Shown here: piece after piece, positions 1,553 through 22,578 of the stretch
Numbering within the stretch: position 1 is the first letter of the stretch
Layout: each line of letters starts with the position of its first letter
Virus record (IMG/VR): IMGVR_UViG_2778261176_000017
DNA: 43,909 bases
From: a virus
Lineage: Duplodnaviria; Heunggongvirae; Uroviricota; Caudoviricetes
Direction: 5' to 3' (one strand)
Position numbers and translations under genes: made by a program
The notes under the pieces: model-generated
Database searches by the model: none
Seen by the model: only the letters and a program-made list of their open reading frames with translations
What the model was told of the DNA's origin: nothing

Positions 1553-1741
1553 TCACGAGGACTGAAGTTTCTCGCAATTAAAATTTATCAGTTTTACTTT
1601 CTGCTCTCTGGAAACGCCTGCTTCTTTTTTACCTGAGAGCATTTTTTCGCATTCTGATTTCGTTAGTTTAGATTTTGAATATCTTGTCCAGTTAGTAGGA
1701 GTGCCACCTTCCTTTTCAATAGTGGCGGTAATTTTATACAT
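1553..1741 (-). CDS. ydaC: Rac YdaC-like small protein (62 aa)
   Basis: ATG at 1741 preceded by GGAGG at 6 nt spacing; start overlaps the ralR stop by 8 nt. Sequence MYKITATIEKEGG recalled as YdaC. Confidence 0.6.
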   Translation of the reverse strand: MYKITATIEKEGGTPTNWTRYSKSKLTKSECEKMLSGKKEAGVSREQKVKLINFNCEKLQSS

Positions 1742-8519: not shown

Positions 8520-8938
8520 AAATCAGGCATGAGCACATCGAATCAGTGTTGTTTGCCCTGGCAGCCGAAAAAGGGCAGGCATGGGTAGCCAATGCAATTA
8601 CTGAAGAATATCTGCGCCAGGGGGGCGGCGAATTGCCCCTGGTTCCAGGCAAGGACTGGAACAATCAGCAGAATATCTATCACCGTTGGTTGAAAGGTGA
8701 AACGAAAACGCAAAGAGAAAAAATTCAGAAGCTGATCCCAGCAATTCTGGCAATCCTTCCGCGCGAGCTGCGTCACCGACTCTGCATCTTCGATACCCTG
8801 GAACGCCGTGCATTACTGGCGGCGCAGGAAGCGTTGAGTACGGCAATTGATGCGCATGATGATGCAGTCCAGGCCGTTTACCGTAAAGCATATTTCAGCG
8901 GCGGTGGGTCGCCCGGCGATTCTGTCGTAGTGCATTGA
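8516..8938 (+). CDS. ydaT: YdaT (CII-like / toxic early protein, 140 aa)
   Basis: ATG overlaps the ydaS stop (ATGA). AGGAGCGG RBS. Sequence MKIRHEHIESVLFALAAEKGQAWVANAI recalled as Rac YdaT. Confidence 0.8.
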   Translation: MKIRHEHIESVLFALAAEKGQAWVANAITEEYLRQGGGELPLVPGKDWNNQQNIYHRWLKGETKTQREKIQKLIPAILAILPRELRHRLCIFDTLERRALLAAQEALSTAIDAHDDAVQAVYRKAYFSGGGSPGDSVVVH

Positions 8939-16969: not shown

Positions 16970-17259
16970 TGGTGGATTTACGTAAAGCGGCGCGGGGGCA
17001 GATGTGCACCGTCAGAATTCCTGGCTACTGCAATCACGATCCGGAAACGTCTGTGCTGGCGCATTACCGACTGGCGGGAACGTGCGGAATAGCGACAAAA
17101 CCACACGATATGCAGGCGGCGATTGCCTGTAGCTCATGCCACGATCTAATCGACGGGCGGGTAAAAACCAGCGATTACACCAAAGAAGAATTACGCCTGA
17201 TGCATGGAGAAGGTGTTTTTCGCACACAAGAAATCTGGAGAAAGGAGGGATATTTGTGA
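16969..17259 (+). CDS. nin-region protein (96 aa), YbcO/DUF1364-like, Cys/His-rich
   Basis: ATG overlaps the upstream stop (TAATG). Cys/His pattern C..C...H...C..C..H; family assignment from memory. Confidence 0.55.
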   Translation: MVDLRKAARGQMCTVRIPGYCNHDPETSVLAHYRLAGTCGIATKPHDMQAAIACSSCHDLIDGRVKTSDYTKEELRLMHGEGVFRTQEIWRKEGYL

Positions 17260-17798
17260 TTTACCCAACGAATACAGGAAAAAGCGGAGAACACCTTCGT
17301 CTCGCCACGCTGGAAAGTGTCTGGATTCAGGGCAAACTGCGTATGTGGGGGCGCTGGTCGTATATTGGCGGTGGCAGGTCAGGAAATATGTTCAATCAGT
17401 TGTTGGCATCCAAAAAATTGACGAAAACAGCCATCAATGAAGCCCTGCGCAGAATGAAAAAAGCGGGAATAGAGAAAGCTGAGCTGGAAGCGTTTTTGAG
17501 AGAGATGATCAACGGCAAGCAAAAGAGCTGGCTGGCGCATTGTACTGATGCAGAGGCGTTATGTATTGATCGGGTCATAAGTGAGGTGCTGGCAGAGCAT
17601 CCAGGATTGATTAGCGTCCTTCGGCAACGGTATGAGGGGCGGGGGATGACCAAACGCAAAATGGCTGAATTGCTAAATGATGCACACCCAGAGTGGTGTT
17701 TTAGCACATGCGAAAAGCGAATTGCTAATTGGTTGGCCGTTGCTGAGTATGCGCTATACATTCCCATGCGAGAATCATTCGCTCAAAAAACGGCTTGA
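17256..17798 (+). CDS. Late-gene antiterminator Q-like protein (180 aa, GTG start)
   Basis: AGGAGG (17244..17249) 6 nt before GTG 17256, which overlaps the upstream stop (GTGA). C-terminal region recalled as similar to Q/YdfT-type antiterminators. Sits upstream of the tRNAs and lysis genes. Confidence 0.65.
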   Translation: MIYPTNTGKSGEHLRLATLESVWIQGKLRMWGRWSYIGGGRSGNMFNQLLASKKLTKTAINEALRRMKKAGIEKAELEAFLREMINGKQKSWLAHCTDAEALCIDRVISEVLAEHPGLISVLRQRYEGRGMTKRKMAELLNDAHPEWCFSTCEKRIANWLAVAEYALYIPMRESFAQKTA

Positions 17799-18150: not shown

Positions 18151-18226
<76 letters not shown>

Positions 18227-18229
18227 TAT

Positions 18230-18304
<75 letters not shown>

Positions 18305-18692: not shown

Positions 18693-19080
18693 ATTCCTTT
18701 CTCAGGACAAAAAAAGACACGAGCATACAGGAATACTCGTGGGACAACGTCCTTTAGATAGCAATTTGCGAGAGGGTGAAAAGTAGCGCGGTCGTCGGAT
18801 TAAGACCGCGGGACAAAGTCCATGAAGAATAATAAGTATTGGCCCCTTCTGGGGACATGTTCATACTACTAAGCTTCAGAAGTGGTTTAAATCATCAAAT
18901 TAACCTTAATTTTCGATAAGTCTTATTTCATTTCTTTGCGCCACACCTGGCGCGCATCAAATAACGCCACGCAAAGGGCATCTGCGGATGCCGGTGCTTT
19001 TGACGGGGTGTTTTTTACGGGCCGCTGGTGGCTATTTTTTGTTTCCATTACACAGCGCCCGCATCTGCGAGGTGGGGGTT

Positions 19081-19296
19081 ATGAAATCCATGGATAAGTT
19101 AACAACAGGTGTCGCCTATGGCACCTCCGCAGGCAGTGCTGGCTACTGGTTTTTACAGTTGCTCGATAGAGTCACGCCCTCACAGTGGGCAGCAATAGGT
19201 GTGCTGGGTAGTCTGGTGTTTGGCCTGTTGACGTATCTGACAAATCTTTATTTCAAGATTAAAGAAGATAAGCGTAAGGCTGCACGGGGAGAGTAA
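19081..19296 (+). CDS. Class II holin / pinholin, phage 21 S-like (71 aa, dual-start MKSM)
   Basis: Sequence [28 protein letters not shown]...[14 protein letters not shown] matches recalled S21 pinholin; two TMDs with charged C-terminus. Confidence 0.85.
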
Positions 19297-19300
19297 TTCA

Positions 19301-19645
19301 ATGACTCAAAACTATGAACTGATTGTGAAAGGGATCCGCAATTTTGAGAATAAAGTTACGGTAACTTTAGCGTTACGGGACAAAAAACGCTTTGACGGTG
19401 AAATTTTAGACCTGGACATCTCGCTGGACCGTGTTGAAGGTGCCGCGCTGGAGTTTTATGAGGCAGCAGCCAGAAGGAGCATCAGACAGGTCTTCCTGGA
19501 TGTTGCTGCCGGGTTATGTGAAGGGGATGAGCAGTCACCGGAAAAGCGCCCCATAATTTTAGAGGCGCAGGGTGTGTGGATAACCTACAAAGGAAAACTG
19601 CCGGGAAGAATTACTGGTTCACTGAAGACTCCGCCGAAATGGTAA
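19301..19645 (+). CDS. Hypothetical protein (114 aa) inserted between holin and endolysin
   Basis: ATG 19301 lies 5 nt after the holin stop, with GGGAGAG RBS. No recognisable motif. Confidence 0.5.
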   Translation: MTQNYELIVKGIRNFENKVTVTLALRDKKRFDGEILDLDISLDRVEGAALEFYEAAARRSIRQVFLDVAAGLCEGDEQSPEKRPIILEAQGVWITYKGKLPGRITGSLKTPPKW

Positions 19646-19883
19646 TTTCACCAGCATATTTTTCTTCCAGTAATACCGCCAGCCACTTGAAAGAATTTTG
19701 TTGTTGCTGGGACCATTTGGGGTTGAGTGATTCAAGCTGGAGCGATGCCAGTGTTGGTTGCATTTGTTCCTTGGGAATTGAGAATGCCAGATATGAAAAT
19801 GCGACAGTAAGGGCATTTACATCATCCCGAAGCTTGGAAATGCAGTCGAGCAACTCCTGTAGAGAAATGGTGCTATTGTCCAT
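19611..19883 (-). CDS. Hypothetical protein (90 aa), convergent with and overlapping the preceding ORF
   Basis: ATG at 19883 with AGAGAGGA RBS 6 nt upstream on the minus strand. The 3' end overlaps the plus-strand ORF by 35 nt. Confidence 0.4.
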   Translation of the reverse strand: MDNSTISLQELLDCISKLRDDVNALTVAFSYLAFSIPKEQMQPTLASLQLESLNPKWSQQQQNSFKWLAVLLEEKYAGEITISAESSVNQ

Positions 19884-19988
19884 AAACAATCCTCTCTATT
19901 GTATTTAACTATTCCTTGCCTGATTCAACAGGCCGGGACAGATAAACATATCCAGGGTTCAGAAACCGATAAATCCTGATAAATATCC

Positions 19989-20522
19989 ATGAACGCAAAA
20001 ATCAGATACGGCCTGTCGGCTGCCGTTCTGGCACTGATTGCCGTCGGTGCGCCTGCGCCTGATATTCTCGACCAGTTTCTGGATGAAAAAGAAGGTAACC
20101 ACACAACGGCATACCGCGATGGTTCCGGTATATGGACCATCTGTCGTGGTGCCACAATGGTGGATGGTAAGCCCGTCATACCGGGAATGAGGCTGTCGAA
20201 GGAAAAATGCGACCAGGTTAACGCTATTGAACGTGATAAGGCGCTGGCATGGGTGGAGCGCAATATTAAAGTACCACTGACCGAACCACAGAAAGCGGGT
20301 ATAGCGTCATTTTGTCCCTATAACATTGGCCCCGGTAAGTGTTTCCCGTCGACGTTTTATAAGCGGCTGAATGCCGGTGATCGTAAGGGTGCATGCGAGG
20401 CGATTCGCTGGTGGATAAAAGATGGTGGGCGCGATTGCCGCATACGTTCAAATAACTGCTATGGACAGGTTATTCGTCGTGACCAGGAAAGCGCATTAGC
20501 CTGTTGGGGGATAGATCAGTGA
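19989..20522 (+). CDS. SAR endolysin, T4-lysozyme-like muramidase (177 aa)
   Basis: N-terminal signal-anchor-release segment [18 protein letters not shown] followed by a lysozyme catalytic region (E...D...T within [24 protein letters not shown]). Partner of the pinholin. Confidence 0.85.
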
Positions 20523-20983
20523 GCAGAGTCGCCGCGATTATTTATGCTCTGGTTATCTGCATCATCGTCTGCCTGTCATGGGCTGTTAATCATTACCGTG
20601 ATAACGCCACCGCCTACAAAGAGCAGCGCGACAAAAATGCCAGAGAACTGAAGCTGGCGAACGCGGCAATTACTGACATGCAGATGCGTCAGCGTGATGT
20701 TGCTGCGCTCGATGCAAAATACACGAAGGAGTTAGCTGATGCGAAAGCTGAAAATGATGCTCTGCGTGATGATGTTGCCGCTGGTCGTCGTCGGTTGCAC
20801 ATCAAAGCAGTCTGTCAGTCAGTGCGTGAAGCCACCACCGCCTCCGGCGTGGATAATGCAGCCTCCCCCCGACTGGCAGACACCGCTGAACGGGATTATT
20901 TCACCCTCCGGGAACGACTGGTAATGATGCAGGCCCAACTTGAAGGTGCTCAGCAATACATAACCGAACAGTGTTTAAAGTAA
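20519..20983 (+). CDS. Spanin inner-membrane subunit Rz (154 aa, GTG start overlapping the endolysin stop)
   Basis: Sequence [29 protein letters not shown]...[15 protein letters not shown] matches recalled lambda Rz. Confidence 0.85.
20739..20924 (+). CDS. Spanin outer-membrane lipoprotein Rz1 (61 aa), embedded in the +1 frame of Rz
   Basis: Lipobox LVVVGC followed by a Pro-rich segment ([17 protein letters not shown]); wholly inside Rz. Confidence 0.8.
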
Positions 20984-21120
20984 AATCTTAACTACAATAT
21001 GATTCATTTTGATGATTGTTTCATAAGGAACAGTGAAGTAAGATCTAAGAGGAGTTAAATTTTATACAGTATAATCATAATATTGCAGCAAGGTGGTTAT
21101 AATTGAAAGAATATTTAGAT

Positions 21121-22578
21121 ATGAATACATCTCATGTAAGAGTTGTTACTCATATGTGTGGGTTCCTGGTTTGGCTCTATAGTCTTTCAATGTTGCCACC
21201 AATGGTTGTAGCATTGTTTTATAAAGAAAAAAGCCTGTTCGTTTTCTTTATAACTTTCGTTATATTTTTTTGCATTGGTGGCGGAGCGTGGTATACAACT
21301 AAGAAATCTGGCATTCAATTACGTACCCGTGATGGATTTATTATAATTGTAATGTTTTGGATTTTGTTTTCTGTTATTAGTGCATTCCCTTTATGGATTG
21401 ACTCAGAACTTAATTTAACGTTCATTGATGCTCTGTTTGAAGGGGTTTCTGGAATAACAACAACAGGAGCAACTGTAATTGATGATGTTAGTTCATTACC
21501 TCGGGCATATTTGTACTATCGGTCACAGTTAAATTTTATAGGTGGTTTAGGAGTTATTGTTCTGGCGGTTGCTGTATTGCCATTATTGGGTATTGGTGGT
21601 GCAAAGCTTTATCAGTCAGAAATGCCGGGGCCATTTAAGGATGACAAACTCACTCCCCGCCTGGCCGATACGTCACGGACACTGTGGATAACTTATTCTT
21701 TATTAGGTATTGCTTGTATTGTCTGTTATAGACTTGCAGGAATGCCTTTGTTTGATGCTATTTGTCACGGGATTTCCACAGTTTCGCTTGGTGGTTTCTC
21801 AACTCATAGCGAGAGTATCGGATATTTTAATAACTATTTGGTTGAGCTGGTGGCTGGTTCTTTTTCCCTGCTATCGGCTTTCAACTTCACTCTTTGGTAT
21901 ATTGTTATTAGCAGGAAAACGATAAAACCTTTAATCAGAGATATTGAACTTCGTTTCTTTCTGTTAATAGCCTTAGGGGTGATCATTGTTACCTCTTTCC
22001 AGGTCTGGCATATAGGTATGTATGACTTGCATGGAAGTTTTATTCATTCGTTTTTTCTTGCCAGCTCCATGCTCACTGATAATGGTTTAGCTACGCAGGA
22101 TTATGCAAGCTGGCCCACGCACACGATAGTGTTTTTGCTGTTGTCAAGTTTCTTTGGGGGATGTATAGGTTCAACTTGTGGTGGAATTAAGTCACTTCGA
22201 TTTCTTATACTTTTCAAACAAAGCAAACACGAGATAAATCAGCTTTCTCATCCCAGAGCGTTGTTGAGTGTAAATGTAGGAGGGAAGATAGTTACAGATC
22301 GTGTAATGAGGTCTGTATGGAGTTTCTTTTTTCTTTATACTCTCTTCACGGTGTTTTTTATACTGGTGTTAAATGGTATGGGATATGATTTTCTTACATC
22401 ATTTGCAACAGTGGCTGCATGTATTAATAATATGGGATTAGGTTTTGGGGCTACTGCATCGTCATTCGGAGTGCTTAATGACATTGCAAAATATTTAATG
22501 TGCATAGCTATGATTCTTGGTCGCCTTGAAATTTATCCTGTTATTATATTGTTTTCAGGTTTTTTTTGGCGCTCCTAA
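21121..22578 (+). CDS. trkG: Potassium uptake protein TrkG (485 aa, polytopic membrane protein)
   Basis: ATG at 21121; AT-rich, hydrophobic ORF matching recalled Rac-encoded TrkG. Confidence 0.9.
   Translation: MNTSHVRVVTHMCGFLVWLYSLSMLPPMVVALFYKEKSLFVFFITFVIFFCIGGGAWYTTKKSGIQLRTRDGFIIIVMFWILFSVISAFPLWIDSELNLTFIDALFEGVSGITTTGATVIDDVSSLPRAYLYYRSQLNFIGGLGVIVLAVAVLPLLGIGGAKLYQSEMPGPFKDDKLTPRLADTSRTLWITYSLLGIACIVCYRLAGMPLFDAICHGISTVSLGGFSTHSESIGYFNNYLVELVAGSFSLLSAFNFTLWYIVISRKTIKPLIRDIELRFFLLIALGVIIVTSFQVWHIGMYDLHGSFIHSFFLASSMLTDNGLATQDYASWPTHTIVFLLLSSFFGGCIGSTCGGIKSLRFLILFKQSKHEINQLSHPRALLSVNVGGKIVTDRVMRSVWSFFFLYTLFTVFFILVLNGMGYDFLTSFATVAACINNMGLGFGATASSFGVLNDIAKYLMCIAMILGRLEIYPVIILFSGFFWRS

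Follow-up and report, generated by a model that had tools for sequence, protein, structure and literature searches.

Gene organization of the lysis cassette

The window, that is, the whole stretch of 43,909 nucleotides analyzed here (IMG/VR record IMGVR_UViG_2778261176_000017), is a Rac-type lambdoid prophage of E. coli and encodes the RalA sRNA of the ralR/RalA toxin–antitoxin system. The trkG gene lies directly 3′ of the lysis genes, as in the Rac prophage of E. coli BL21, which carries an identical lysis module. The features of this module are listed in Table 1. The gap between the holin and endolysin genes is 692 bp long and is filled by two genes, ydfR and ORF90.

An earlier note, made from the sequence of the window, described two ORFs in this gap that converge and overlap by 35 nt at their 3′ ends, and the ORF listing and the sequence bear this out. 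The same holds for the two translational features mentioned there: the plus-strand ORF is coupled to the holin gene, its ATG (at 19301) being located 4 nt past the holin stop codon, and the minus-strand ORF has an RBS of its own, the start ATG being preceded by GAGAGGA at a spacing of 7 nt. This ATG, which gives the 90-aa form of ORF90, is the start used by both PGAP and PHROG 2411. Nothing in the holin–endolysin arrangement as a whole is out of the ordinary, and it has been annotated before, for example in BL21; the two proteins encoded in the gap are identical to WP_000193293.1 and WP_000370546.1.

Table 1 Features in and around the holin–endolysin gap of the window
Feature	Position	Strand	Evidence
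S21-type pinholin, 71 aa, begins MKSM (Met1 and Met4)	19081..19296	+	PF04971, E = 4.8e-35; identical gene is essD in PGAP
ydfR, 114 aa, DUF1327/YdfR family	19301..19645	+	PF07041, 141.8 bits; phrog_406
ORF90, 90 aa from ATG, PHROG 2411, WP_000370546.1	19611..19883	-	phrog_2411, E = 4.7e-59; codon model; dN/dS
ORF90, alternative 92-aa form from TTG	19611..19889	-	ORF listing
Convergent overlap of ORF90 and ydfR, 35 nt	19611..19645		ORF listing; sequence
Present/absent cassette of about 290 bp carrying ORF90	19640..19930		Alignment to PhiR40_1 and H-19B; GC content
Mirror ORF opposite ORF90, 110 aa, spurious	19576..19908	+	Codon model; stops in diverged copies
SAR-type endolysin, 177 aa	19989..20522	+	PF00959, E = 1.3e-24; hydrophobic N-terminus
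Rz spanin	20504..20983	+	PF03245, E = 9.4e-53
Rz1, embedded in Rz	20739-20924	+	ORF list; Rz1-family lipoprotein in PGAP annotation of the stretch

The plus-strand gene is ydfR

The plus-strand ORF had been regarded as devoid of any recognizable motif. This view did not stand: its product matches Pfam DUF1327 over residues 1–112, with a score well above the cut-off of 25 bits, and PHROG 406 over its full length, and an identical protein is annotated as "YdfR family protein" in PGAP. The gene is thus ydfR, which is located in the order essQ-ydfR-rrrQ in the Qin prophage of K-12. The K-12 Qin protein (b1555) shares with that of the window the family, the slot between an S21-type holin gene (essQ) and a lysozyme gene (rrrQ), and 81% identity over residues 1–72. 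In Qin, too, the ydfR ATG is located 4 nt after the essQ stop codon. Two differences were found between the two genes. One is that the K-12 protein is 103 aa long, whereas that of the window has 114 aa and ends with ...KGKLPGRITGSLKTPPKW. Another is that the end of the K-12 gene overlaps the start of the endolysin gene rrrQ by 4 nt, whereas in the window ydfR is kept apart from the endolysin gene by the ORF90-carrying cassette. The S–R gap of H-19B also holds a YdfR homologue, an unannotated one of 115 aa. Across the family, the C-termini diverge past the motif SLKTPP, and forms of 103, 114, 116, 176, 183, and 196 aa occur.

As for its occurrence, ydfR DNA was matched in 4349 of the 5426 complete E. 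coli genomes (about 80%), with at least 80% of the gene covered in 1906 of them. Among phage records, 438 carry an S21-type holin, 101 carry YdfR, and 3 carry ORF90; YdfR is absent from 337 of the 438 holin records. The statement that a pinholin gene is normally followed directly by a SAR endolysin gene is therefore correct for most sequenced phages but, judging from the ydfR counts, not for resident prophages. Likewise, of the two ORFs described as inserted, the term fits the minus-strand one (the colinearity of PhiR40_1 and H-19B with the window breaks off at the ydfR stop codon and returns about 290 bp further on), while the plus-strand one is the known ydfR in the slot that it also occupies in K-12 Qin.

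The ydfR frame has a pooled pN/pS of 0.44, and every other frame of this region is interrupted by stops. With pooled values of 0.42–0.44, ydfR and ORF90 are under weaker constraint than the holin gene (0.17) and the endolysin gene (0.09). The YdfR protein has a pI of 7.8 (near neutral to basic) and no transmembrane segment, and both members of the YdfR/ORF90 pair are hydrophilic (GRAVY −0.19 and −0.32). In the structure prediction that the earlier note had suggested for both products, AF2 gave YdfR three strands and a long helix with moderate confidence for residues 1–76, and low confidence for residues 73–114.

Searches of YdfR against Pfam, NCBIfam, and PDB sequences gave no tie to any characterized family, lysis regulators included, and those against NCBIfam, PADLOC, and PDB sequences gave no match. 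The functional data that we found on the YdfR family come from a single study (PMC13232886, 2026). There, both a two-hybrid assay and co-purification showed K-12 YdfR to bind RNase E at its catalytic N-terminal half, for which YdfR residues 1–72 suffice. RNA co-purifies with the protein. Its overproduction caused no growth defect and altered few transcripts, for which reason a role of YdfR in RNA decay is regarded as unproven.

ORF90 as a protein-coding gene

A mirror ORF of 110 aa, missed in the earlier note, lies on the plus strand opposite ORF90, and its third codon positions coincide with those of ORF90. In the close E. coli copies, pN/pS is 0.42 for ORF90 and 0.30 for the mirror ORF, with 9 and 7 discriminating changes, respectively; since the third codon positions are shared, neither pN/pS nor close copies can separate the two frames. 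They leave room for the idea that ydfR is the only real gene here and that ORF90, or else the mirror ORF, is a chance frame, as do the frameshifted ORF90 alleles that occur and the failure of a sigma-70 scan to find an ORF90 promoter. We consider this idea very improbable in view of the following five observations. First, a codon model trained on the long genes of the window, in which true genes score 35 ± 13 bits, gave a log-likelihood ratio of +28.8 bits for ORF90 and −5.7 to −13.5 bits for the mirror ORF. Second, all eight diverged copies, the most distant of which is 56% identical, keep the ORF90 frame open at 89–90 aa; in six of them the mirror frame contains stops. Third, dN/dS of ORF90 (codons 1–79) among diverged lineages, with dS up to about 1, is 0.16–0.6 and mostly 0.2–0.3. 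Fourth, when a profile was searched against 1.8 billion representative proteins, ORF90 relatives of similar length (81–97 aa) and 28–36% identity appeared in Klebsiella, Atlantibacter, Sodalis, and other contigs; such homologues come from four other genera and stand in unrelated contexts. Last, AF2 predicted a helical bundle for the product with confidence.

Judging from these sequence comparisons, ORF90 is a real gene under purifying selection. The comparison with related cassettes that had been proposed in the earlier note thus revealed conservation and a coding signal for ydfR and ORF90 alike, and its suggestion that only one of the two may be real was not borne out, as both are conserved coding sequences. 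The mirror ORF at 19576–19908 (+) was ruled out as a real gene by its codon usage and by the stops in six of the eight diverged copies. It was also considered that ORF90 or the mirror ORF may be a remnant or an inversion of the C-terminal extension of the 183-aa YdfR form, but no similarity was found.

The ORF90 protein

The match between ORF90 and PHROG 2411 covers profile positions 1–90 of 90; the length of about 90 aa is kept in this family. ORF90 is the same gene, with no difference, as that of the hypothetical protein of the BL21 Rac prophage (PHROG 2411, WP_000370546.1). The protein is acidic, with a pI of 4.4. Its AF2 model is a three-helix bundle (helices 8–34, 38–52, and 59–77) with a mean pLDDT of 77. 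Residues 80–90 are predicted to be disordered (pLDDT about 40) and form the least conserved segment of the family.

No match to ORF90 was found in Pfam, NCBIfam, PADLOC, or PDB sequences, and fold searches gave nothing informative (E > 3 in PDB with Foldseek, and E > 0.39 in BFVD). Because a fold match is lacking, any biochemical role assigned to ORF90 is a guess. We found no literature that names the ORF90 accessions and no functional study of PHROG 2411 or WP_000370546.1.

Occurrence of ORF90 and its genomic contexts

ORF90 was found in 1221 of the 5426 complete E. coli genomes, BL21 and ST131 included. Identical or near-identical copies in the same context are carried by the Rac prophage of BL21, by prophages of ST131, and by the phages Chlobot, vB_EcoS-783R2, and phiSTEC1575-Stx2k. 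Counted by places in the complete E. coli genomes, ydfR DNA occurs at 8616 and ORF90 at 1355, and each gene is mostly found without the other.

ORF90 is found in several kinds of context; the copies beside iha, on plasmids, in the Klebsiella and Atlantibacter-type prophages, and at non-phage chromosomal sites are diverged. The first is the late region of prophages. In phiSTEC1575-Stx2k and its relatives, S21-ydfR-ORF90 is retained ahead of a different, complete lysis cassette of holin and M15-peptidase type, and ORF90 is also intact where the 5′ part of ydfR has been lost. In a Klebsiella prophage, the homologue is located after Rz, reversed relative to the late genes, and in the Atlantibacter and L116 prophages it is located between the tail genes M and L, again reversed. 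ORF90 opposes the late operon in every prophage examined. The second is plasmids: ORF90 is present on 73 plasmid records, mostly typed as conjugative, and in those of the IncF type that were examined its upstream neighbor is an AIDA-type autotransporter gene. A third is non-phage chromosomal sites, including one between dinI and bssS. A diverged copy adjoins iha, inside a decayed remnant of the cassette.

Boundaries of the insertion and the 3′ overlap

Where ORF90 is lacking, as in PhiR40_1, H-19B, and numerous other cassettes, colinearity with the window extends to the final ydfR codons (about 19636–19645) and sets in again at about 19925–19935. The cassette of about 290 bp delimited in this way includes the ORF90 start, its RBS, about 45 bp upstream of it, and most of the coding sequence, whereas the end of ORF90 lies outside. 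The last 11 codons of ORF90 and its stop codon are roughly opposite the last 11 codons and stop codon of ydfR, and thus consist of antisense ydfR sequence. ORF90 reads on there up to its stop codon, which gives the product its disordered tail. The GC content of the cassette is 42.1%, a modest difference from the 47.8% of ydfR and the 51.7% of the endolysin gene.

No promoter site was found upstream of ORF90 in the sigma-70 scan, the regional counts of which were at chance level, although a consensus scan can miss a weak promoter or one of a non-sigma-70 type; by eye, weak hexamers alone are discernible there. No terminator was found 3′ of ORF90, and the next one on the minus strand is located at 18741–18718, past the holin gene. 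At the overlap, the predicted RNA folding of both strands is no better than that of shuffled controls, and no Rfam family was detected in the ydfR/ORF90 region. The lack of a terminator or an unusual RNA structure at the overlap fits late transcripts that need to reach the endolysin and spanin genes. Together with the disordered, variable tail of ORF90, the lack of a special RNA structure suggests that the 35-nt overlap came about as a side effect when cassettes were exchanged.

These features can be compared with those of the classical lambdoid morons (lambda bor and lom, Rac trkG), which are autonomous genes added to late operons. Like them, ORF90 is present or absent at a fixed, sharp junction, differs in base composition toward lower GC, and has an orientation independent of the late operon; moreover, the same family occurs at varied prophage positions and outside phages. 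Unlike them, ORF90 has no recognizable promoter or terminator of its own, and it has no separate 3′ end but runs into the neighboring gene. On balance, we read ORF90 as behaving as a moron.

Two accessory genes, probably independent of each other

Starting from what was observed (the reality of both genes, their family membership, the cassette boundaries, the distribution, and the orientation), we infer the timing of expression and the functions of both proteins as follows. The reading that we favor, and that we consider moderately probable, is that the gap of this Rac-type lambdoid prophage holds two accessory genes that are independent of each other, the late gene ydfR and the moron ORF90, and that their overlap is a by-product.

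According to this reading, ydfR would be a gene of the late operon, translated right after the pinholin gene. The conserved N-terminal domain of its product (residues 1–76) would correspond to the part of K-12 YdfR for which binding to the catalytic half of RNase E, and co-purification with RNA, were reported; the C-terminal part is interchangeable within the family. YdfR may then influence the processing or decay of host RNA during the late phase of infection, outside the lysis machinery. ORF90 would be a moron, namely, a self-contained, lower-GC cassette of about 290 bp that is reversed and joined at the ydfR stop codon. Its product, predicted to be a small acidic cytoplasmic three-helix protein, would be expressed from the resident prophage and may work by binding another protein. 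The likeliest class of function would be a benefit to the lysogen, for example the exclusion of, or interference with, other phages. Q-dependent late transcription has to cross ORF90 in the antisense direction to reach the endolysin and spanin genes, and such antisense read-through would silence ORF90 in lytic growth. The overlap would arise from the exchange of cassettes at the 3′ end of a late-strand gene.

Convergent partner genes and the question of coupling

A 3′ overlap between ORF90 or its homologue and a small late-strand ORF is found in five contexts (35 nt in E. coli, 20 nt in Klebsiella, 7 nt in Atlantibacter, 15 nt in L116, and 17 nt in L114). This recurrence counts against the by-product view and could mean functional coupling. 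Specifically, ORF90 and its convergent late-strand partner, here the C-terminal part of YdfR, may form a coupled module that moves as a unit between late operons and functions through protein antagonism or through mutual antisense or transcriptional interference.

Some features of the partners argue for such a module. The C-termini of YdfR and the Atlantibacter partner are alike (...RITGSLKTPPKW and ...QIFGDLKKPPSY, each followed by the stop codon), with a p value of 0.0014 for the last 40 residues in a Smith–Waterman shuffle test. When an HMM of YdfR residues 78–114 was used, the ORFs converging on ORF90 homologues took ranks 1–4 of 1221. The Atlantibacter tail type is, moreover, seen only in the partner alleles of ORF90-bearing loci, the context having been checked for two of the five other alleles.

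In standard tests, however, the similarity among the tails is below significance: BLASTP among the convergent partner ORFs gave no match, the E-values of the above HMM hits are 0.03–1.2, the shuffle test of the Klebsiella partner gave p = 0.096, and the DNA of the partner tails cannot be aligned. A database search with the Atlantibacter partner returned six clusters, all from Atlantibacter and without a link to DUF1327. In addition, the 116-aa and 183-aa forms have this YdfR C-terminus although ORF90 is absent, no partner is visible for ORF90 on plasmids, in Sodalis, or at the dinI–bssS site, and the numbers of places given above for ydfR and ORF90 are far apart. We therefore regard the coupled module as rather unlikely.

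The small gene that follows tail gene M in Atlantibacter provides a clue to the origin of the overlaps. Its first 47 residues are kept while its C-terminus varies among alleles, and the three loci compared have three tails and three reverse neighbors: the ORF90 homologue, an unrelated 72-aa ORF, and an uncalled 83-aa ORF. We read this pattern, from the alleles compared, as cassette exchange with a breakpoint within the 3′ end of the forward gene. If the breakpoint is located there, convergent overlaps would be by-products, as in the reading of two independent genes. The reverse ORFs of the Atlantibacter M–L slot (L117 and L119) were also considered as distant relatives of ORF90, but the best E-value was 1.1 and the relationship was not established.

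A bolder version can be derived from the same observations. An ORF90-type gene together with its neighbor's tail may constitute a mobile convergent two-gene cassette that enters and leaves enterobacterial prophages at the 3′ ends of their late genes (in the lysis cassette, downstream of Rz, and in the M–L slot), giving the neighbor a new C-terminus each time; the ORF90 protein or the antisense transcript would then control the neighbor, or the leaky expression of late or lysis genes in the lysogen. We consider this distinctly unlikely. If it were true, about one-fifth of E. coli genomes would carry genes for prophage maintenance or exclusion that belong to a family not described before.

Lysis control and toxin pairs as alternatives

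Another alternative is that YdfR is a lysis regulator acting from the cytoplasm on the pinholin or on the release of the SAR endolysin, that it is tuned by ORF90, and that the pair sets the timing of lysis. Small genes amid holin and endolysin genes are likewise known for accessory lysis regulators, such as the T4 RI and RIII antiholins, P1 LydB, and the Mu endolysin regulators. The position of ydfR between S and R is fixed and, in Qin, tightly coupled on both sides, and the maintenance of S21-ydfR-ORF90 in phiSTEC1575-Stx2k and its relatives, despite the replacement of the endolysin module, points in the same direction. Furthermore, a K-12 ydfR mutant was scored in an envelope-integrity screen, according to the account in PMC13232886 of Paradis-Bleau 2014; this result could be a polar effect on rrrQ. 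Against this alternative, YdfR is not needed for lysis, since 337 of the 438 S21-holin phage records are without it. The protein has no transmembrane segment and no family link in the Pfam, NCBIfam, and PDB sequence searches, and neither YdfR nor ORF90 showed similarity to an antiholin or another regulator in Pfam, PDB sequence, and fold searches. The available experiments point to RNase E and RNA (PMC13232886). Thus, a lysis regulator has a small chance of being the right explanation.

The toxin–immunity or toxin–antitoxin pair carried as a moron, which the earlier note had put forward, has next to no support left: it is suggested by two small adjacent prophage genes, the products of which are acidic (pI 4.4) and near neutral to basic (pI 7.8), but the genes are convergent and do not form the operon of co-directional genes that is characteristic of type II systems, no toxin or antitoxin match was found in PADLOC, NCBIfam, or Pfam, either gene is widespread without the other, and the overproduction of K-12 YdfR was non-toxic (PMC13232886).

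Significance of the ORF90 family and the proposed exchange site

Because the region is explained by the YdfR family and an ordinary moron-type insertion, it should not be singled out as a lysis system of an unusual kind. The residual novelty lies in a widespread, unstudied family of small proteins and in the potential mobile convergent cassette. As regards the former, the ORF90 family has no Pfam model and is distributed over E. coli, conjugative plasmids, and prophages of other Enterobacterales, and it would be an easy target for functional screens. As regards the exchange site, the 3′ end of ydfR and that of the small gene in the Atlantibacter M–L slot appear to be hotspots for the exchange of reverse-oriented cassettes. 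This exchange seems to swap the C-terminus of the forward gene, and it would illustrate how convergent overlaps can arise without a regulatory purpose.

Convergent overlaps of ORF90-family genes

In five contexts (see the table), one of them being the ydfR–ORF90 pair of the window, a small ORF on the late strand is overlapped at its 3′ end by a gene of the family of ORF90, the 90-aa minus-strand ORF. The C-termini of the partners are similar by eye (ending, before the stop, in RITGSLKTPPKW, QIFGDLKKPPSY and RLTGDILIPLES), and the best pair gave a shuffle p of 0.0014; comparison by BLASTP, HMM and DNA alignment detected no significant similarity among these C-termini.

In Atlantibacter-type prophages, the first 47 residues of a small forward gene between the tail genes M and L are constant, while at least six different C-termini follow them. 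The reverse-strand content downstream of this gene differs among the three loci examined. One locus carries an ORF90 homologue, another an unrelated ORF of 72 aa, and the third an 83-aa ORF whose ORF90-like match is below threshold (E = 1.1). The M-L slot appears to be a hotspot for cassette swaps, comparable to the 3′ end of ydfR.

Variants and diverged homologues

Two kinds of variants were found. One is that several ORF90 clusters (proteins P0044, P0045, P0049, P0051, P0058 and P0063) carry frameshifts, giving 94-aa products that cross into the frame of a 65-aa minus-strand ORF, so in some lineages the gene is undergoing decay. The other is that some YdfR proteins (P0131 and P0153; 169 and 196 aa) have their N-terminal domain duplicated internally in tandem.

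Diverged ORF90 homologues (56–61% identity) adjoin adhesin loci. In an IS-rich island, one homologue is oriented divergently from iha and flanked by decayed remnants of ydfR and the endolysin gene; on IncF plasmids, others lie downstream of an AIDA-type autotransporter accompanied by its heptosyltransferase, at a distance of about 300 bp. ORF90 matches on plasmids amount to 73 records in all.

Lysis regions of the window and related phages

The S21 holin-ydfR-ORF90 block of phiSTEC1575-Stx2k and related prophages precedes not the SAR endolysin but a second lysis cassette, itself complete, made up of two holin-family genes and an M15 peptidase; these phages thus have a pinholin without its usual partner. 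In the phage H-19B record, the 400-bp "empty" gap between S (holin) and R (endolysin) actually codes for a YdfR homologue.

Coordinates of the features described (L-numbers, comparison loci)
Feature	Location	Strand	Remark
RalA sRNA	window 1557-1735		Rfam RF02694, 225 bits
220-aa ORF	window 17136-17798
tRNA-Thr(TGT), tRNA-Gly(TCC)	window 18151-18304		between 220-aa ORF and lysis cassette
Terminator-like site	window 18741-18718	-
Two terminator-like hairpins	window 18977-19033	+	just upstream of holin
65-aa ORF	window 19619-19816	-
trkG, potassium transporter	window 21103-22578		GC 37.7%
ORF90-family overlap contexts	L109 6001-6476; L107 1383-1818; L116 456-869; L114 821-1325; window 19570-19645
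M-L small forward gene	L109/L110; L117/L118; L119/L120
Adhesin-adjoining ORF90 homologues	L100 2946-3218; L104 6001-6270; L105 6001-6270
S21 block and second cassette	L002 1441-3459; L094; L095
115-aa YdfR homologue, H-19B	L005 1709-2056		AF034975.3; unannotated

Upstream of the window's lysis cassette, the 220-aa ORF, whose counterpart in a near-identical E. coli prophage is a DUF1133 family protein (PGAP), is taken from its position to be a putative Q-like antiterminator. The plus-strand hairpins are possibly a late terminator overridden by Q. For a putative ORF90 transcript, the first terminator-like site would be the minus-strand one, reached past ydfR and the holin in antisense.

The RalA sRNA, which is the antitoxin in the type I toxin-antitoxin system ralR/RalA of Rac, fits the assignment of this prophage to the Rac family. 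As in Rac, trkG directly follows the spanin genes Rz/Rz1; it is a second, classical moron adjoining the lysis cassette.
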